Positions 298 to 19,888 of a stretch of DNA of 50,389 bases are shown here, piece after piece; positions within the stretch are counted from its first letter, which is position 1; each line of letters starts with the position of its first letter. The DNA lies in contig CAYVAZ010000002.1 in NCBI GenBank assembly GCA_964449065.1, positions 1 through 50,389 on the forward strand, read 5' to 3'. This stretch comes from an uncultured bacterium (GTDB lineage Bacteria > Hinthialibacterota > Hinthialibacteria > Hinthialibacterales > Hinthialibacteraceae). The notes under the pieces were generated by a model. That model was not told the origin of the DNA and searched no databases. It saw only the letters and a list, made by a program, of their open reading frames with translations. A program made the position numbers and the translations under genes.

Positions 298-1746
298 TTA
301 AATCGTCCAAGGTCCATCTTCAAGGATATCCTTTTTTGGCCATTTTGCTAATGCAGCAATCCATGTTTGATGTTTCTTCCGCATCCTGTTCAATTGATCC
401 TGATACATTGGATAGTTGGCTAGATTCTCAATCTCCAGCGGATCATTCTTTAAATCATACAGTTCTTCCGTCATCATGGGTTCTTTTTCAAGGTATTTAA
501 AGTATTTCCACCGCTCGGTACGCACTCCCTCGCTTTTTGCAATTGTGGCATGGTCAAACATATGTTCATAAAAGAACTCTTTCCGCCAAGGGATGAGTTC
601 GCCATTCAATGTTGGGTTCAAGTCCAATCCCTGCATATCTTGCGGTGGTGTTATCCCTGCCATCGAAAGCATGGTTGGAGCCAAATCGATATTCAGTGTC
701 ATCCCATGCCGCTCATCCCCCCGTTTTTGCGAATCCATGCGCGGGTCCATAATAATGAGCGGGGCACGGATCGATTCTTCATGCGGATACCACTTCCCTG
801 CCAGACCGTATTCACCCAAGTAAAACCCATTATCGGATGTAAAGATAATAATTGTGTTTTGATCCAATCCCTTCTCTTTCAACTTTCGCCGGATCCTTCC
901 AATCACCCGGTCCACTCCTGTTATCAATCGGTAATAGCCCTTTACTGACTGCTGATATTTCTCGTCATTCGGAAAGCGCATTTCCCAGCGTCTTCGTGCT
1001 TCTGAATCTTGAATGAATTCCGGCAGGCTCTCATAATATTTCTCATCCGATTTCGGCGCGGGAGGGATAGTGTCATTCTCGTTCACCCACTCCAATTTCG
1101 GGTCATACAAAAACTGCCGCGGGTCAGAATCCTGTACATGCGGTGCTTTAAAACTGACCGAAAGGCAAAACGGCTGTTCATCACTGCATCCTTCCAAAAA
1201 CTCTTCGGAATGATCTCCCATAATATGAGTCAGGTGGACAGTCTCCCCGTCAATCTCGTGATAGTATTTTCCCTGCCCGGAGAAGCCTTCAAAGAAATCA
1301 AAGGAATCCTTCGGTAATTCCCCGCCCAAGCCCCATTTGCCGATGAAACCTGTTTTGTACCCTGCTTCACGCAGCAAGACCGGGTATGTCTTATCAAATC
1401 GCTCCTTTGATAATGGATCTCGAAACGAATCGATTCCGTGGCAGCGGGTGTATAGGCCGGTAAAAATACTGGCCCGGCTCGACATACAAATTGCCGTCGT
1501 AACAAAGTGGTTTTTGTATAGAACTCCGTCTTTTGCGAGTTGATCTATATTGGGTGTTTGAATGATTTCATTCCCTACACACCCCATCGTATCCGCCCGT
1601 TGATCATCGGTTAACAGAAAAACGATATTCGGTTTCTTTTCACGATGGCTGGCAGCCAAAACGTTAGATAAACCTGGCATAATTGAGACGGAACCGGCCG
1701 CGGATAAAGTAGAAAGAAAATTTCGTCGAGTAGTAGAATTCAGCAT
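298..1746 (-). CDS. Tat-exported formylglycine-dependent (S1) sulfatase
   Basis: ATG at 1746 after AAGGGGG; twin-arginine TRRNFL; KPNIVFLLTDDQ, CMSSRASIFTG, GYKTGFIGKW, FTSDNG, ELYDLKNDPLE motifs. Confidence 0.93.
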   Translation of the reverse strand: MLNSTTRRNFLSTLSAAGSVSIMPGLSNVLAASHREKKPNIVFLLTDDQRADTMGCVGNEIIQTPNIDQLAKDGVLYKNHFVTTAICMSSRASIFTGLYTRCHGIDSFRDPLSKERFDKTYPVLLREAGYKTGFIGKWGLGGELPKDSFDFFEGFSGQGKYYHEIDGETVHLTHIMGDHSEEFLEGCSDEQPFCLSVSFKAPHVQDSDPRQFLYDPKLEWVNENDTIPPAPKSDEKYYESLPEFIQDSEARRRWEMRFPNDEKYQQSVKGYYRLITGVDRVIGRIRRKLKEKGLDQNTIIIFTSDNGFYLGEYGLAGKWYPHEESIRAPLIIMDPRMDSQKRGDERHGMTLNIDLAPTMLSMAGITPPQDMQGLDLNPTLNGELIPWRKEFFYEHMFDHATIAKSEGVRTERWKYFKYLEKEPMMTEELYDLKNDPLEIENLANYPMYQDQLNRMRKKHQTWIAALAKWPKKDILEDGPWTI

Positions 1747-1883: not shown

Positions 1884-1970
1884 AGCCCGTAGATGGGTTG
1901 AAGTACGTACCCCCATCTTTTCTCCGATGGGTTTCGTAGGGTAAACTGTTATCAACCCATCTACATGGCT
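1884..1970. repeat. REP doublet (REPIN-like)
   Basis: Perfect 13-bp inverted repeat gtagatgggttga (1889-1901) / tcaacccatctac (1952-1964), plus internal cccatc/gatggg arms. GTAG-started palindromes are typical of REP families. Confidence 0.75.
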
Positions 1971-1973
1971 GAG

Positions 1974-2279
1974 TTAGACTGGTGGTTGATACGTTTGAAT
2001 TTCTACATTAAGGTGTTCGGCTATTTTGTCTTCCGCGACATCTAAATCATAATCCATTTGTAGTCCCAGCCAAAACTGAGGTGACATATCAAAATATTTA
2101 GCCAATCGTAAAGCAGTATCTGCCGTTATTCTTCGCTTACCCTGTATGATTTCATTGATTCTTCGCGCAGGGACTCGAATATCGAGAGCTAGGCGATTTT
2201 GGCTAAGATTCATCGGTTTTAAGAATTCTTCTTGTATAATTTCTCCTGGATGTAAGGGGAGCATTCTCTTTGAAGTCAT
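1974..2279 (-). CDS. higA: HigA/VapI-family antitoxin (Xre HTH)
   Basis: LHPGEIIQEEFLKPMNLSQNRLA...RINEIIQGKRRITADTALRLAKYF...FWLGLQMDYDL; GGAGAG RBS; directly downstream of higB. Confidence 0.95.
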   Translation of the reverse strand: MTSKRMLPLHPGEIIQEEFLKPMNLSQNRLALDIRVPARRINEIIQGKRRITADTALRLAKYFDMSPQFWLGLQMDYDLDVAEDKIAEHLNVEIQTYQPPV

Positions 2280-2287
2280 GATCTCTC

Positions 2288-2569
2288 CTAATGATAATCA
2301 ACTATCTCTACATTATGAGCATCGCCCTCATGCCACTCAAAACAGATTCTCCATTGGGAATTTATTCGGATACTGTATTGACCTTTTCGAAAACCCTTTA
2401 ACGCTTCTAATTGATTTCCAGGTGGTACAAGCAAATCTTTCAAAGTCTGAGCTCGATTCAACATTCGTAGTTTTCTCAAAGGCACACGTTAAATGTGGTT
2501 TGGAAACTTTTTAGAAATTTGGCGCTCGAATATCTTTTTTGTTTCTTTGCACTTGAACGACTTTATCTA
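2288..2569 (-). pseudogene. higB: HigB (RelE-superfamily) toxin, inactivated
   Basis: The frame reads [38 protein letters not shown]...[11 protein letters not shown]...[15 protein letters not shown]...VEIVDYH. TAG occupies the start position (2569-2567) and there is an in-frame TAA (2491-2489). Confidence 0.88.
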
Positions 2570-2686: not shown

Positions 2687-2717
2687 GGATGGGTTGAGCG
2701 CTATCGTAACCCATTCC
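2687..2717. repeat. REP-like palindrome
   Basis: ggatgggttgagcgctatcgtaacccattcc forms a hairpin and shares gatgggttga...aacccat with the repeat at 1884-1970. Confidence 0.65.
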
Positions 2718-2723
2718 AAATGC

Positions 2724-2993
2724 TTATTGCTCCCGAAGTACTTGGTGGATATCAGCGGTTTTTTGATTGACTTCAATGATGACATCACCTCCACGCCGTC
2801 CAATATAATCTTTCGGACCATAATCGATACGCCAAAATACCTCGTCTTTAACAGTCCGTTGGGTGATCGTTATGATTGATTGAAGGATATCAATTCCAAG
2901 TTCAGCGGCGCGTTTATTCGCTGCTGCCGTCGCCCTAGCAAGGGAAACAGCAATATCATCTTGAAGTACTTCAGTTGGAAGTATGGCTGCCAT
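2724..2993 (-). CDS. Small hypothetical protein, putative immunity/antitoxin partner of the JAB-motif protein
   Basis: ATG at 2993 (89 aa) behind an AAGGAG RBS that overlaps the upstream TAA. Helix then beta-rich WRIDYGP...RRGGDVIIEV, reminiscent of NTF2-fold immunity proteins (inference). Confidence 0.6.
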   Translation of the reverse strand: MAAILPTEVLQDDIAVSLARATAAANKRAAELGIDILQSIITITQRTVKDEVFWRIDYGPKDYIGRRGGDVIIEVNQKTADIHQVLREQ

Positions 2994-3003
2994 AATAATC
3001 TCC

Positions 3004-3435
3004 TTATGCGTCAAAAAAAGTTTCACTGGTATACCCAACGTCGCTTACCTGACCATCAACAGAAATGTGATATATTTTTTCTGCAGAAATAACTATTTCA
3101 CCTTCATAAAGTTTCCCTTTTAAATTCGGGTCATCCCGGACTGCCCGTTTGTCCGTTTCACTCGGCTCTTGTAGATAATCTTCGCCAGTATTCGGATGAG
3201 TGTGAAACGTTGCGATTATGTCTTTATTGCCAATTTTACAATCCGGATGTGGTGGCAGAACAATACTGCCCTGTTCACCCATTGACCATCGAATCACTTC
3301 TATATTGCCGCTCAAGTTCATGACAATAAAACCGCCTTCTTCGTGTCTGTCAGTCGTTCCAGGTTGAGAATCTTCCCATGCTTGTTTAAGGGCTGAACGA
3401 ACCGTCGGATCATTCAATATTCTGAATAGAGTCAT
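3004..3435 (-). CDS. Stand-alone JAB/MPN-motif metalloenzyme (DUF4329/Tox-JAB-like)
   Basis: HEEGGFI ... IATFHTHPN ... PSETD matches the JAB/JAMM pattern E...HxH...S..D. 143 aa, no signal peptide or delivery domain. Confidence 0.72.
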   Translation of the reverse strand: MTLFRILNDPTVRSALKQAWEDSQPGTTDRHEEGGFIVMNLSGNIEVIRWSMGEQGSIVLPPHPDCKIGNKDIIATFHTHPNTGEDYLQEPSETDKRAVRDDPNLKGKLYEGEIVISAEKIYHISVDGQVSDVGYTSETFFDA

Positions 3436-3497
3436 GAAGTTCTCAGGTAAGGATAATTATTCAAAACGTACAAGACGGTTCCGCTTTCCGTATTATA

Positions 3498-3532
3498 ATA
3501 ATAGCCATGAAATTGAAATGATACAATTCATG
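3498..3532 (-). promoter_or_regulatory. Putative promoter of the JAB pair with overlapping inverted repeat
   Basis: Minus strand TTGTAT-17 bp-TATTAT. Imperfect inverted repeat catgaaattg (3506-3515) / caattcatg (3524-3532) overlaps the -35 and spacer. Confidence 0.45.
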
Positions 3533-3773: not shown

Positions 3774-4097
3774 ATGATTTTAGCCGAAAAAAAATGTGTC
3801 CCCTGCGAAGGTGGGGTCGAAAAATATACCGATGATGTCGCTCATAAGATGTTAGAACATGTAGATGGTTGGAACTTAAAAAACAATCAAATCCACAAAC
3901 GCTTCGCATTCAAAAACTTTGTGGAAGCGATAAAATTCATCAATCAAGCCGCGGACGTCGCGGAAGAAGAAGGCCACCATCCCGATATCTGTGTTCACTA
4001 CAACAAGGTGGATTTTTCGATTTGGACTCATGCGATCGGCGGTTTATCGGAAAACGACTTCATCTTGGCCTCAAAAATCGACCGTTTGCCGAAGTAG
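3774..4097 (+). CDS. phhB: Pterin-4-alpha-carbinolamine dehydratase
   Basis: CVPCEGG, FKNF, AEEEGHHPDI, WTHAIGGLSENDFILASKID; AAGGAG RBS-like sequence upstream. Confidence 0.93.
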   Translation: MILAEKKCVPCEGGVEKYTDDVAHKMLEHVDGWNLKNNQIHKRFAFKNFVEAIKFINQAADVAEEEGHHPDICVHYNKVDFSIWTHAIGGLSENDFILASKIDRLPK

Positions 4098-5938: not shown

Positions 5939-7012
5939 TTAACGCCGACGGGAAGTGCGCGCCATTCGGCGGACTTGAGATTGCTTTTGAGGGGGCGTTT
6001 CCACTGCTTCCGGTTCGGGTTCGGGTGGTGGGGCTTCCGGTTCCGGTTGCCGCTTCATCTCTGTCACTTCTTTTGACGCATCCAGAGCCTTTTTGCCTTC
6101 TTCGGTCTCTCCCATTTCCTGTTCTCTCGAAGCCACGACAGACTGCATCCCGTCCCGCTCTTTATCGGCGACTAACGACTGGCCACCGTATCCTTGTGGA
6201 ATATTCTCACCCAGCAAGGCAAACGCCATATCCCACCGGCTGCATCGGGTTAGCTGCGTTTGTTCTCCGCCCCGCAGGTCTTCCCGCAGGTGGCTGTTGG
6301 CCGCGTCAATCCGCTGTTGAAACGCGGGCAGTTCTTTTCGGCATCGATCCAACATGATTTTGTGTGCTTTTTCTAAATCTTCCAGTGAATACCCTAAATC
6401 TTCAGGTTTTACTTGTCCGTTTTCTATTAAAGCGCGGGTAATTTTGATTCGCTCATAGAGCATTGCGCTTTGGGTCATCGCGTGTTTTAGATTGGGGCCT
6501 TGGTTTTTGATATCATCCAGCAGTAAGCGCAGCGACCTTTCACACCCTTCAAATTCCCGGTGCAAAAAATCGTGATTTGAGCCTAAGTTTTCTTTCAGTT
6601 GCTCCAATAAAATCAGATCATGCGATGCCGCCATGATCATCTGGCGCATGTTTGAAATATGGCTGCTAAAGATTTCCGCGGAAGTTAACTTCCATACCGG
6701 AGTCGGTCCTTCAATTTTCAATTGTTTAATTGGGATATCTAATTTTTCCAGAAACGTTTCCAATCCCCCTTGCGGCATCCAAAACGCGCCTTTGCCGGAT
6801 AGTACACACGTTATATCTTTGCCGGGGTATGCCTGCCTTAACCCCAGTTCGGAATTGGCGAGTGATTCCCGTATTCCCCGGATATTTTTGTAATCAACTT
6901 CCCAGGGATTTGGGGTTCCGGTCAAGTCGGTAAATGAAGATGTATAGAGAGATTCTTTTTCAAGAAGTTCTATTAGATCATCCGTTATGAGGACTGCTGG
7001 ATTTGATGACAT
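5939..7012 (-). CDS. Hypothetical helical protein with Pro/Glu linker and Arg-rich C-terminus
   Basis: 357-aa ORF convergent on folC; no recognised family. Confidence 0.7.
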   Translation of the reverse strand: MSSNPAVLITDDLIELLEKESLYTSSFTDLTGTPNPWEVDYKNIRGIRESLANSELGLRQAYPGKDITCVLSGKGAFWMPQGGLETFLEKLDIPIKQLKIEGPTPVWKLTSAEIFSSHISNMRQMIMAASHDLILLEQLKENLGSNHDFLHREFEGCERSLRLLLDDIKNQGPNLKHAMTQSAMLYERIKITRALIENGQVKPEDLGYSLEDLEKAHKIMLDRCRKELPAFQQRIDAANSHLREDLRGGEQTQLTRCSRWDMAFALLGENIPQGYGGQSLVADKERDGMQSVVASREQEMGETEEGKKALDASKEVTEMKRQPEPEAPPPEPEPEAVETPPQKQSQVRRMARTSRRR

Positions 7013-7197: not shown

Positions 7198-7863
7198 TCA
7201 AGCGGCAAGGCAGATCAGACCTCTTGCATGATTGTTAACCGGGTTTCTTCCGGTGATGGTATTGGTGAAATATGTGTAAGAGAAATCGATATCAAATTTA
7301 AGTTCGCCAATTGTGCCGTATATCCCAGCCGGCAAAGGTCTTCCCGTATTTTGGCTGGGACCGCCGTCACCTTCTCCGGTTTCTTCTATTTCTTGAATTT
7401 GTCCTTTCAATACTTTTTGTACAATACGGTACCCCTTTTTTTTTCCTCCACCCATTCCGCTCCCGCGAGCAGGAGCGATTGCCCATCGGGTTGGCATTCG
7501 GAGCGTATGGTTTTCACCGTTAACTTCAAATGTAATACCTGTATTTATGGGCATATTTCCTGCAATTGTATTGTAAAGCGTTGTGTAATTCATTCGGGCA
7601 TTGATGAACTCATCACCAATATACCCTTTTAACCATGAATTCACCGGGAAATTTCCTTTGGTATTGGTTACGATATGGTATGAAAAACGCAAATCAACTG
7701 GAATATTCAATAAGGAACCGGAAATGCCACTGTTCACCGGAAAATTTCCATGCAGAGCATTGAACACAACTTTATATGAAAACTTTAAGTCAACACCGAT
7801 TGTTTGATTTTGTTTTACGTAATCAAGTAACCTGTCATAAATGTTTGTCATCACACACTCCAT
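7198..7863 (-). CDS. Hypothetical protein with four internal repeats
   Basis: 221-aa ORF (alternative ATG at 7851 after GGAG); repeated Y-x4-5-N-x2-3-G-x-x-P-[VI]-N motif. Confidence 0.75.
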   Translation of the reverse strand: MECVMTNIYDRLLDYVKQNQTIGVDLKFSYKVVFNALHGNFPVNSGISGSLLNIPVDLRFSYHIVTNTKGNFPVNSWLKGYIGDEFINARMNYTTLYNTIAGNMPINTGITFEVNGENHTLRMPTRWAIAPARGSGMGGGKKKGYRIVQKVLKGQIQEIEETGEGDGGPSQNTGRPLPAGIYGTIGELKFDIDFSYTYFTNTITGRNPVNNHARGLICLAA

Positions 7864-11847: not shown

Positions 11848-12086
11848 CTTCTTTTTTTTTGCGTTACAAAGATAAAATCAGTACGTTCGCTACTTTAGTT
11901 TTCTGTATTTCGTATGCCTTTACATTCAGCATTCATTCAAATTCAGTTTTTTTTTCGCTTGACCTTGTAATACTAGGGGTTTAGTGAGTAGGATACCATC
12001 TTTGTGATGTACTGTTTTGGGCAATCCAAGATAATGTAAATGTCTTTTTAAGCAAATTACATTCTAAAATTCGAGGTAAGAACGAT

Positions 12087-16904: not shown

Positions 16905-17006
16905 CTAGTAGTCTGTCAATCAAAAAATGACGGTTCGTTATACGTTGTTGCCCCCCTTGATAAGGGGGGATCGACACCCGTCATTTAATCGTTGACACTG
17001 TACTAG
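16905..17006. mobile_element. MITE-like element, copy 2 (102 bp, CTAG-bounded)
   Basis: Imperfect 29-bp terminal inverted repeats ctagtagtctgtcaatcaaaaaatgacgg / ccgtcatttaatcgttgacactgtactag around the hairpin cccccctt-gat-aagggggg. Confidence 0.75.
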
Positions 17007-18622: not shown

Positions 18623-19888
18623 ATGCGCCTCATTCTCTTGATTTTACTGTTAACCATTTCCCCGTTTGTCCGCGCGGTTGATTTTGATGCCGCGATTCTA
18701 ATTACTCAGCATTTTGAAGAAATCTCGTTTGCAAGAAACCCGCAAAACGCCATCCAAATCACGGATGATGGAACGGTGCATCTGGTATACACCATTGCGG
18801 ATACGAGTGTACCGGTACCCAACACCTCCATTTATTATCAAAGCATTCAAAACGGTCTCATAAACGGTCCTGTCCGAATCAACAGCAGCGGCACCAATGC
18901 AAACCATCCGGCAATGAAAATCGGCGAAGACGGGATTGTGCATGTGGTTTGGCAAGATAGCAGACATTCCACACCATCAGGCAATTGGGTGGATAACATT
19001 GAAATCTATTATGACCGGAAATCTCCTGAAGGTGATTTTCTGGATAACGATAACCGCATCACCAAAACGCAGGCAAATCATTTAGGCGATAACGGTTTTG
19101 CCCCACAACTCGAAATTACAGATAACGGCATTATTCATATCGTATGGTATGATTTTCATACCAACGGCAACAACGCGGATGTGTACCTAAGAAGCAGCGA
19201 TTCCGAAGGCGATTTTCCGGCGGTTGAAGGGATAGATGAATTTCGGATCACGAATATTGAAACCGGGGATAATTTTCTTTCTCATTGGCTGCCGACCATA
19301 TCCGGTTTTGCGGATGGGCTGTATGTGTTATGGGGTTTCCAGGAAGGATTCACCACGATATTTGAAATGCAGGGAATGGAAATCACAGGATCGAATCAAA
19401 AAGATATAGAGACAATTGGAAAAGGGGGGAAACTGCTCGATCCGCTTCGCTTGGCCTCCGATCATCAGGGAAACATAGGTTGTGTATATGGAAACATTGT
19501 CGAGAACCAAAGCGTCATTGAATTTCGGTATCGAACGGAAACAACAGATTGGAGTAAGCCGCTAAGGGTAAATTCAGGTTTCAATCATGCAACCCAGCCG
19601 CATTTGGCATTCGATTTGGACGGCAACGCCCATGCCGTTTGGCAAGAAGATATCGGCGGCGTATTTGAAATCCGCTATGCGGAAATTGATCCGGTAACAA
19701 TGTCGATTATTACCCAACAAAAATTTTCCAATGAAGAATCCGATCGCAGGACGCCGGTCATTGGAATCAACCCGCAAACCAGCCGAATTCATATAGCATG
19801 GATCGACCATTGGCCGCTGGAAGGCCGAGCCGTTTATTTGATGCAGGAAACGGTGACATCCATTTTGGAATGGAATCAAATAGACTAA
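18623..19888 (+). CDS. Secreted beta-propeller-like repeat protein
   Basis: Signal peptide ending VRA; repeated P...DG-x-[VIA]-H-[VIA]-V-W blades. Confidence 0.75.
   Translation: MRLILLILLLTISPFVRAVDFDAAILITQHFEEISFARNPQNAIQITDDGTVHLVYTIADTSVPVPNTSIYYQSIQNGLINGPVRINSSGTNANHPAMKIGEDGIVHVVWQDSRHSTPSGNWVDNIEIYYDRKSPEGDFLDNDNRITKTQANHLGDNGFAPQLEITDNGIIHIVWYDFHTNGNNADVYLRSSDSEGDFPAVEGIDEFRITNIETGDNFLSHWLPTISGFADGLYVLWGFQEGFTTIFEMQGMEITGSNQKDIETIGKGGKLLDPLRLASDHQGNIGCVYGNIVENQSVIEFRYRTETTDWSKPLRVNSGFNHATQPHLAFDLDGNAHAVWQEDIGGVFEIRYAEIDPVTMSIITQQKFSNEESDRRTPVIGINPQTSRIHIAWIDHWPLEGRAVYLMQETVTSILEWNQID

Follow-up and report, generated by a model that had tools for sequence, protein, structure and literature searches.

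Positions 1 to 50,389 of contig CAYVAZ010000002.1 (assembly GCA_964449065.1, from an uncultured bacterium of the Hinthialibacterota), the whole of which is referred to here as the window, contain two small genes on the minus strand: one for a stand-alone JAB/MPN protein of 143 amino acid (aa) residues and, directly behind it, one for a partner of 89 residues. Comparison of homologous loci indicates that they form a tightly linked, patchily distributed unit, which probably acts inside the cell as a toxin-antitoxin (TA) module resembling those of type II.

A conserved two-gene unit

The JAB open reading frame (ORF) lies inside an open frame of 150 codons and carries HEEGG..FHTHPN..EPSETD, with a complete zinc motif (E32, H78, H80, S92, and D95). 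At its junction with the partner gene (TAA-GGAG-ATTATT-ATG; gap of 10 nt) the stop codon overlaps the AAGGAG Shine-Dalgarno sequence of the second gene; both the frame and this overlap had been pointed out in a preliminary description, made from the letters of the sequence alone, and both were found in place. The JAB protein possesses no signal peptide, and no Shine-Dalgarno sequence precedes its gene. Homology searches were limited to candidates of 78-251 aa for the JAB and 48-156 aa for the partner, of which 792 of 800 and 467 of 468, respectively, were homologues; given these numbers and ratios of nonsynonymous to synonymous substitution (dN/dS) far below 1, both ORFs are evidently real genes.

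Scanning GTDB genomes yielded 140 confirmed JAB relatives, of which the best 80 were analysed. Judged by record names, the loci span at least ten phyla, among them Chloroflexota, Cyanobacteriota, Acidobacteriota, Planctomycetota, KSB1, Armatimonadota, Gemmatimonadota, Verrucomicrobiota, Bacteroidota, deltaproteobacteria, and others. The partner lies directly 3′ of the JAB in 79 of the 80, the last locus ending 116 nt past the JAB stop codon. In metagenomes, 74 of 80 loci belong to this clade and 73 of the 74 have the partner (five copies being cut by contig ends and one frameshifted). The gap between the genes ranges from -31 to +31 nt over 155 loci. Two small, adjacent, co-oriented, and strictly linked genes are the arrangement of a type II TA locus. 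That of a polymorphic toxin, with the toxin domain at the C-terminus of a trafficking protein, was seen in none of the 80 genome loci, where the JAB is never fused (stop-to-stop frames of 141-235 aa). The earlier proposal of a free-standing, toxin-first module therefore stands, as does its expectation that the two genes co-occur elsewhere; the worry that homologues might exist only as C-termini of RHS-like proteins, as in an orphan cassette, is answered by close homologues that stand alone.

The direction of gene loss is the second line of evidence. One set of 502 genomes (301 of the class to which an Anaerolineae record belongs and 201 of that of a Pyrinomonadaceae record) was searched with both the JAB and the partner profile, and the partner was found in 10 genomes of the former group and 24 of the latter. 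At 31 loci with a full-length partner the JAB is intact in 12, broken in seven, and absent in 11, the last locus lying at the edge of a contig. Six more fragments of the partner were all next to a JAB that is broken or missing. The broken copies next to intact partners are truncated, frameshifted, or internally deleted, and the lesions vary: deletions joining the 5′ end of the JAB gene to the ribosome site of the partner, an internal deletion, an interruption and, in one case, clean loss of the JAB at a site where relatives have the pair. In the reverse search, an intact partner accompanies all 12 full-length stand-alone JABs. Eighteen partners without an intact JAB against zero or one JAB without a partner is what would be expected of a harmful gene with its antidote, and by this genomic proxy the toxin depends on its antitoxin, apart from two exceptions (L152 and L239) that are weighed below. 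At one locus (L199 in G464, minus strand) no JAB is present, and the partner domain continues in frame from part of a different small protein.

Purifying selection acts on both genes, the median dN/dS being 0.20 for the JAB and 0.08 for the partner (31 disjoint pairs), and the evolutionary distances of the two co-vary (rho 0.60 for 90 of 129 distinct pairs; equalled in 0 of 500 permutations). A Shine-Dalgarno sequence precedes the partner in 117 of 131 distinct pairs and the JAB in 23. In one subclade an extended -10 element, TGCTATAAT, lies six nt ahead of the JAB ATG (TAnnnT occurs at that offset in 16/131), which suggests a leaderless JAB mRNA.

Two side observations concern the distribution. 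In the Anaerolineae-class sample a different stand-alone JAB-like family of about 200 aa was encountered (L225, L226, and L227), and in two such loci the following gene looks HicB-like by eye. Records titled Heliomicrobium (L030, L038, and L044; also L119) share sequence and flanks with Blastocatellia loci, and the label of L030, L038, and L044 is probably wrong.

The putative zinc hydrolase and its partner

The JAB/MPN+ superfamily is characterized by a Glu ... HxH ... Ser ... Asp zinc motif (available part of PMC3239186), which the window protein possesses throughout. Across 84 JAB sequences E32, H78, and H80 are invariant and D95 is kept in at least 90%; the position of S92 is Ser in 119 of 148, the window protein included. 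Against DUF4329 (PF14220) the window JAB scores 20.1 bits, under the cut-off of 28.6, and it has a weak Prok-JAB match as well; 83 of the 84 alignment members match DUF4329 at E ≤ 0.01, with a family best of 7.5e-11. The stand-alone JAB thus appears homologous to Tox-JAB-2/DUF4329 as a divergent subfamily. TIGR02256 reaches 11.8 (cut-off 127.6), and no PADLOC model matches either window protein. The start codon position is fixed and the length is 138-156 aa in nearly all copies.

The structural model of the JAB (predicted local distance difference test, pLDDT, 88.8) retrieved MPN-domain structures at the top of a wide search, led by Rpn11 (Z 8.4, root-mean-square deviation (rmsd) 3.5, 112 residues aligned) and followed by AF2198 (Z 8.0), PfJAMM1 (7.5), and Cap3 (7.1); RadC came at Z 6.6 (rmsd 3.8, 110 aligned) and deaminases at 4.6 or less. 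Foldseek placed PfJAMM1 first (E 1.6e-3, probability 0.99), and the Atlas search led to DUF4329, Prok-JAB, and Toxin-JAB1 clusters. Sequence searches of the PDB with the JAB and partner profiles gave chance-level rows only. Profile and Foldseek comparison, which had been proposed as a check of the JAB assignment, thus recovered a JAB/MPN fold and the DUF4329 relationship; Z values as middling as these would not by themselves show a function.

The window partner has no match in Pfam, NCBIfam, or PADLOC. Its model (pLDDT 88.5) consists of a long helix on a four-strand meander, the last strand of which ends at residue 87 of 89, and the best structural matches are PepSY-type domains: CD1622 (4exr; Z 7.3, rmsd 3.0, 64 aligned), YpeB (6.8), YpmB (6.3), and the MCP-02 propeptide (5.3). 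In the MCP-02 structure the propeptide C-terminus reportedly binds the zinc, a role similar to that proposed below for the partner tail. Atlas leads were divided between PepSY (0.86) and Imm-NTF2-2 (0.85). At the sequence level PepSY (PF03413) gives weak matches, below the Pfam cut-off, in 14 of 85 partners. Imm-NTF2-2 (PF15631) does not match the window partner and gives a weak match in two of the 85 (best E 0.025; the control YbbC scored 91.3 bits). The model is nearer to PepSY-type chains (Z 6.3-7.3) than to NTF2-like ones (about 4.1), the fold of the immunity families that had been named for comparison. Members of the PepSY family are likely protease-inhibitory and have been proposed as peptidase inhibitors (PMC5078317, in the part available).

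Complete partners measure 87-90 aa and all 143 end in Gln, 142 of them in Gly-Gln within a tail of the form VL-R/W/H-GQ. By inspection, no stand-alone partner begins with a hydrophobic signal or a lipobox.

Relationship to exported toxins

The 23 JAB representatives at E ≤ 1e-30 are 100-195 aa long. Fused forms start at 118 bits and have PAAR, LysM, extracellular contractile injection system core, Ig-like, or very long N-termini, with the JAB mostly as the last domain; a length-restricted search added 20 longer proteins of 31-43% identity. Among the fused forms, L098 is a vgrG-PAAR-JAB type VI secretion system (T6SS) locus, L097 and L099 encode further PAAR-JABs, and L172 encodes a toxin of more than 1150 aa. 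The genes behind the L098, L099, and L172 JABs end in ERGQ, ERGQ, and MQGQ. An alignment of these three plus the partners of two divergent stand-alone JABs matched the partner profile (95.7%, E 1e-8), each of the five outscoring 200 of 200 shuffles. By profile comparison, then, the partner is homologous to the genes behind PAAR-JABs and long JAB-tipped toxins, and an immunity-type gene directly downstream, as polymorphic toxins have, is present by homology.

In L242 and L243 a true RHS core carries a JAB tip, and the gene behind encodes a lipoprotein with a pattern like that of the partner, which ends in YTQ and YYQ, respectively. The JAB profile also matched the C-terminus of E. coli RhsD (88%, E 3e-6), a DUF4329 member followed by the Imm-NTF2-2 gene ybbC; the pairing of Tox-JAB-2 with Imm-NTF2-2, RhsD-YbbC being an example, is listed in the available part of Zhang et al. 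2012 (PMC3482391). Toxin-linked homologues of the partner match Imm-NTF2-2 weakly. A transitive profile link from them to YbbC was tried and failed (P 0.15-0.26).

Seven of the eight partner-like genes behind fused JABs (L096, L098, L099, L172, L242, L243, and ybbC, the exception being L097) start with a hydrophobic signal or a lipobox. These calls rest on inspection and the lipobox pattern, not on the hydrophobicity score, which overlaps (2.46-3.15 in toxin-linked proteins; up to 2.53, with a median of 1.91, in stand-alone ones). Eight cysteines occur among the final 179 residues of the RhsD tip. Signal peptides and lipoboxes on the downstream genes, together with these cysteines, suggest a periplasmic site of action for Tox-JAB-2 and speak against its annotation as an RNase. 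Because the downstream homologues mostly carry such signals, the partner is most likely a cognate immunity protein turned cytoplasmic. The partners of L098, L099, and L172 have an internal Met where a cytoplasmic form would begin.

A quick tree (72 rows, of which 37 are stand-alone at <72% identity; Shimodaira-Hasegawa-like approximate likelihood ratio support only; RhsD on a very long branch) separates stand-alone from fused JABs with two changes, against 20 in shuffles. We infer from the greater diversity of the toxins that the stand-alone form derives from them; the tree is unrooted and gives no direction. Of the suggestion that a toxin tip was domesticated as a TA system, the homology to tip and downstream gene is thus upheld, and the direction is not supplied by the tree. 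More divergent stand-alone pairs (L100, 702-1432; L101, 73-869; L220), with partners lacking a signal peptide, are nearer to the PAAR-linked toxins, and the stand-alone state may have arisen more than once.

Further JAB architectures were noted in passing. In a viral contig (L096, 1455-2904) a JAB-tipped protein, apparently frameshifted near its end, lies in a prophage head-tail region; the gene behind it has a signal peptide and ends in Gln, and against the partner profile 69 of 200 shuffles match or beat it. Further along the same contig (4212-5519) lies the gene of a protein that resembles it at the N-terminus and has a different tip. Five secreted proteins (P0242, P0243, P0246, P0250, and P0251) have an N-terminal JAB after the signal peptide, followed by VWD domains, an architecture unlike that of toxin tips.

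Proposed mechanism

It is rather likely that the JAB is harmful to the cell when the partner is missing, and direct binding of the partner to the JAB is a likely means of neutralization. A weakly translated zinc hydrolase would be restrained by a strongly translated PepSY-like partner; loss of the partner, or a stop in its synthesis, would free the toxin, and the freed toxin would keep the pair in genomes and favour decay that begins with the toxin gene. As neither protein has a recognisable DNA-binding domain, dosage would be set by translation, through the weak or leaderless start of the toxin and the strong Shine-Dalgarno sequence of the partner, and not by operator repression. Because the length and terminal Gln of the partner are conserved, and the Gln is shared with the toxin-linked lipoproteins, its last strand may lie in the JAB groove with the Gln carboxylate at the fourth zinc site, binding zinc as the product of JAMM cleavage would; such product mimicry is a tentative suggestion, to which we give slightly less than an even chance. 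The chemistry is probably amide or isopeptide hydrolysis rather than that of a nuclease, since the immunity proteins of the exported relatives appear periplasmic and the JAB surface is acidic. The substrate would have to be within reach on both sides of the inner membrane; the stem peptide of peptidoglycan precursors is our best guess, and a doubtful one. The fullest version, a widespread type II TA family in which a JAB amidohydrolase toxin is held by a PepSY-like antitoxin that plugs the zinc with its Gln, and which arose from a T6SS or RHS effector-immunity pair through loss of the effector stalk and of the immunity signal peptide, is a possibility that we place well short of even.

A number of points weigh against the TA interpretation. 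L239 encodes a C-terminally truncated JAB that keeps its metal ligands and has no partner, and at L152 an intact JAB stands beside a frameshifted partner, possibly an assembly error, since L155, with the same JAB score, has a whole partner. Two of the 12 intact pairs are from the seed genomes, related genomes are not independent, and the JAB gene is a larger mutational target than the partner. Most type II TA systems have a DNA-binding domain in the antitoxin, of which there is no sign here (no Pfam match to helix-turn-helix, ribbon-helix-helix, or AbrB domains in 85 partners). The Ser of the JAMM motif is replaced by Gly in 19 of 148 JABs, the window partner is itself the exception to the Gly-Gln tail (it ends in REQ), and the fold matches are middling, with all Z-scores ≤ 8.4, RadC at 6.6, and no Foldseek match reaching E 0.001. 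The link between partner and YbbC is weak (P 0.007, reached by one of 200 shuffles, and not significant in a later comparison), and YbbC ends in Lys. If immunity is periplasmic in the exported relatives, a cytoplasmic JAB may have no target. Finally, one count in favour of the interpretation stands without a control set: in at least 21 of the 80 genome loci a gene of a known TA family (MazF, HigB, HicA, BrnTA, PIN, HepT, ParE, DUF433, DUF5615, or DUF2442) lies no further than three genes away on one side or the other.

Alternative explanations

The same TA logic would apply were the JAB a nuclease or RNase, as has been predicted for Tox-JAB-2 and RadC. Nucleic acid would be at hand for a cytoplasmic toxin, RadC does match the model, and toxin JABs lack the residues of the tunnel for ubiquitin-like protein (Ubl) tails and may be nucleases, according to the available part of PMC3482391. 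JAMM peptidases nevertheless outrank RadC, by less than two Z units; the JAB is acidic (median isoelectric point 4.8; 5.7 for the partner, also acidic), and the signals on the genes behind fused JABs place immunity outside the cytoplasm. We consider a nuclease unlikely.

The pair could also be an abortive infection system in which phage frees the JAB toxin, an explanation compatible with the TA mechanism and differing in the selected function. Many TA systems act against phage. PADLOC identified AbiEii, AbiL/AriA, a type II restriction endonuclease, PDC-S14, and PDC-M19A as neighbours at L053, L070, L072, L075, and L077, and GmrSD and Mrr lie near L045 and L054. Defence-type neighbours nonetheless occur at only about seven of the 80 loci, a figure without a control, and most flanks are housekeeping or TA genes; of 117 hand-picked neighbour proteins 12 match PADLOC at 1e-20, several of which look generic. 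Neither protein matches a PADLOC model itself, and no close relative was matched in plasmids or viral contigs, the latter yielding one distant fused relative (L096). The anti-phage role raised in the preliminary description is thus unsupported, and it strikes us as quite unlikely.

Alternatively, the locus may be an orphan tip/immunity cassette or acquired immunity, in which the partner protects against the JAB toxins of competitors and the JAB is a silent passenger or recombination donor. Both genes are related to parts of polymorphic toxins, at 18 of 30 informative loci the partner persists without an intact JAB, a Shine-Dalgarno sequence is usually missing before the JAB, the partner of the PAAR-JAB L097 seems to have no signal peptide, and the window's own genome contains two Rhs-core genes. 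Neither of these has a JAB match, and PAAR and VgrG have no match in that genome. Near the pair, a tblastn search of 154 loci (1.1 Mb) gave no match to PAAR, VgrG, or Rhs, although its Rhs queries missed the long toxin L172 in a control that recovered PAAR and VgrG, so that divergent repeats may escape; Pfam found no RHS family among 150 nearest neighbours. A silent passenger would also fit poorly with the fixed start and length of the JAB, its conserved metal ligands and dN/dS, and with the grouping of stand-alone apart from fused JABs. This explanation is accordingly a small minority chance.

Last, the JAB might process or deconjugate the partner, which would then be a modifier like ubiquitin or Pup with its xGQ tail as substrate and not as plug, given that the fold matches are Ubl-cleaving JAMM enzymes and the tail recalls the LRGG of ubiquitin and the GGQ of Pup, but this is highly improbable: the folded model is not a beta-grasp, the toxin-linked homologues include lipoproteins ending in YTQ or YYQ without Gly, loss is one-sided, and no activating enzyme (E1), conjugating enzyme (E2), or ligase family occurs in the window or among the scanned neighbours (150 of 154 nearest, plus 115 small ones of 253 second and third neighbours). 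The folded model, with no ligase or proteasome family among those neighbours, led us to reject a Pup/UBact-like system.

Setting in the window

The coordinates are collected in Table 1. Sulfatase and pcbD lie about 190-590 nt apart at three of 13 pcbD loci of relatives (the other ten have no sulfatase within 1.5 kb and are uninformative) and about 2030 nt apart in the window; higA, the dead higB, and the JAB-partner pair hence fill an insertion. The JAB is present in two of 41 genomes around the window's own, at different sites, and flanks vary over the 80 GTDB loci, many being housekeeping genes.

Table 1. Features around the JAB-partner pair in the window, and genes behind Tox-JAB-2-type tips at other loci
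Feature	Position	Strand	Remark
Sulfatase, flank	298..1746	minus	near pcbD in three relatives (empty site)
REP-like palindrome	1889..1964		13-nt perfect arms, low copy
higA antitoxin, intact	1974..2279	minus	TIGR02607 above cut-off
higB pseudogene	2288..2569	minus	stop codon at start position, internal TAA 2489-2491
Second REP-like palindrome, imperfect	2687..2717		just downstream of partner
Partner gene, 89 aa	2724..2993	minus	predicted antitoxin, PepSY-like model
AAGGAG Shine-Dalgarno of partner	3000..3005	minus	overlaps JAB stop codon
JAB/MPN gene, 143 aa	3004..3435	minus	Tox-JAB-2/DUF4329-like predicted zinc hydrolase, predicted toxin
Candidate promoter and imperfect inverted repeat	3492..3532	minus	no better than chance
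Pterin-4a-carbinolamine dehydratase (pcbD), flank	3774..4097	plus	opposite side of insertion
Gene behind tip, L177 (E. coli K-12 ybbC)	5082-5450
Gene behind tip, L098	1560-1886
Gene behind tip, L099	803-1135
Gene behind tip, L172	3443-3841
Gene behind tip, L242	1945-2265
Gene behind tip, L243	652-1260

Several neighbouring features had been put forward as context. Of the adjoining higBA, higA is intact and higB is a pseudogene, so that an intact system is rejected; the dead higB beside higA is a second instance of toxin-first decay in the same insertion. The repetitive extragenic palindromic (REP)-like palindromes do exist and are low-copy, each giving one blastn high-scoring segment pair (HSP) in the genome; their core 10-mer has 33 genome copies, with about 10 expected. 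A different and abundant palindromic repeat, of the CCCCCCT..AGGGGGG type, occurs at 1-80 and about 16943-16969 and, with 239 blastn HSPs over 173 contigs, is the main REP-like family of the genome.

Upstream of the JAB, the letters of the promoter described earlier are present (TTGTAT at 3526-3521, a 17-nt spacer, TATTAT at 3503-3498, with a perfect TATAAT beside it at 3497-3492), as is the overlapping imperfect inverted repeat (9/10 nt, 3532-3506). The -35 candidate agrees at only three of six positions, and the promoter scanner did not list it. Because the repeat is single-copy in the genome, inspection by eye showed no conserved operator or palindrome upstream of JAB homologues, and promoter-like sites in the region number 19, with 10.9 ± 3.3 expected by chance, promoter and operator are no better than chance, and we rejected them as evidence.

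The remainder of the window consists of housekeeping genes. As stated beforehand, it holds no RHS, E1/E2, Ubl, or cGAS/DncV-like nucleotidyltransferase (CD-NTase) family among 41 proteins scanned with Pfam, a set that past position 12000 took in only ORFs of at least 150 aa; nor did these scans show a full-length toxin, an orphan cassette, or secretion genes near the pair. Three ORFs of 357, 221, and 421 aa (5939-7012, 7198-7863, and 18623-19888) have no convincing Pfam or NCBIfam family.

Comparison with known systems

To our knowledge, no type II TA system with a JAB/MPN toxin has been known. The pairing of a JAB domain with an immunity gene is already known by prediction (PMC3482391, in the part available), and stand-alone Tox-JAB-2 members may be included in Additional File 1 of that paper, in which case the pair would be less novel. 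The literature searched, which covered few subscription journals and no supplements, yielded no JAB pair that is at once stalk-free, cytoplasmic, and spread over several phyla; the accessible part of the effector survey PMC12994826 does not mention JAB, and a term search of that of PMC7618764 gave nothing. According to the available part of a recent preprint (bioRxiv 10.1101/2024.03.05.583533), neither the activity nor the substrate of Tox-JAB-2 is yet known; the same preprint and the available part of PMC10469887 label it an RNase. The stand-alone pair amounts to a small, soluble, stalk-free toxin with its inhibitor, in which activity, target, and inhibition are directly testable. It would also illustrate cleanly how components pass between weapons used against other bacteria and selfish modules inside the cell, the change of compartment being visible in a signal peptide on the immunity genes of the exported forms and none on the stand-alone form. 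Should the fullest version of the proposed mechanism be true, the cell envelope or its precursors would be what Tox-JAB-2 toxins attack, in spite of their annotation as RNases.

With Tox-JAB-2/Imm-NTF2-2 (PF14220/PF15631) the pair shares a homologous JAB with the E, HxH, S, D motif, the toxin-first order, and a small alpha+beta gene behind. It differs in lacking any RHS, PAAR, or secretion part and signal peptides, in its fixed size, in its spread over at least ten phyla (Imm-NTF2-2 is listed for E. coli only in the available part of PMC3482391), and in that the window proteins fall under both Pfam cut-offs. Like the JAMM/MPN+ isopeptidases (Rpn11, AF2198, PfJAMM1, Cap3 of the cyclic oligonucleotide-based antiphage signalling system (CBASS), and bacterial Ubl deubiquitinases), the JAB has the full zinc motif and fold matches at Z 7-8.4; unlike them, it shows 10-19% identity, and the E1, E2, Ubl, and CD-NTase genes that accompany Ubl-conjugation and CBASS JABs (Cap3, Bil, Bub, and SAMP) were not found in the window or the scanned neighbours. 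The partner resembles the PepSY domains of YpeB, YpmB, CD1622, and M4 propeptides in its helix and four-strand meander (Z 5.3-7.3), and departs from them as a stand-alone, cytoplasmic single domain paired with a JAB and not with an M4 peptidase.

A precedent for the proposed behaviour is found in Salmonella Typhimurium, where toxin tip and immunity gene of Rhs-CT/RhsI pairs are expressed within the cell and function as a type II TA module (Starsta et al. 2020, PMC7043789, in the part available). Those pairs lie within rhs loci and have promoters inside the rhs ORF, whereas the JAB pair stands outside any rhs context and forms a mobile unit by itself. By architecture the JAB pair is not a polymorphic toxin, and by the genomic proxies considered here it is type II TA-like.

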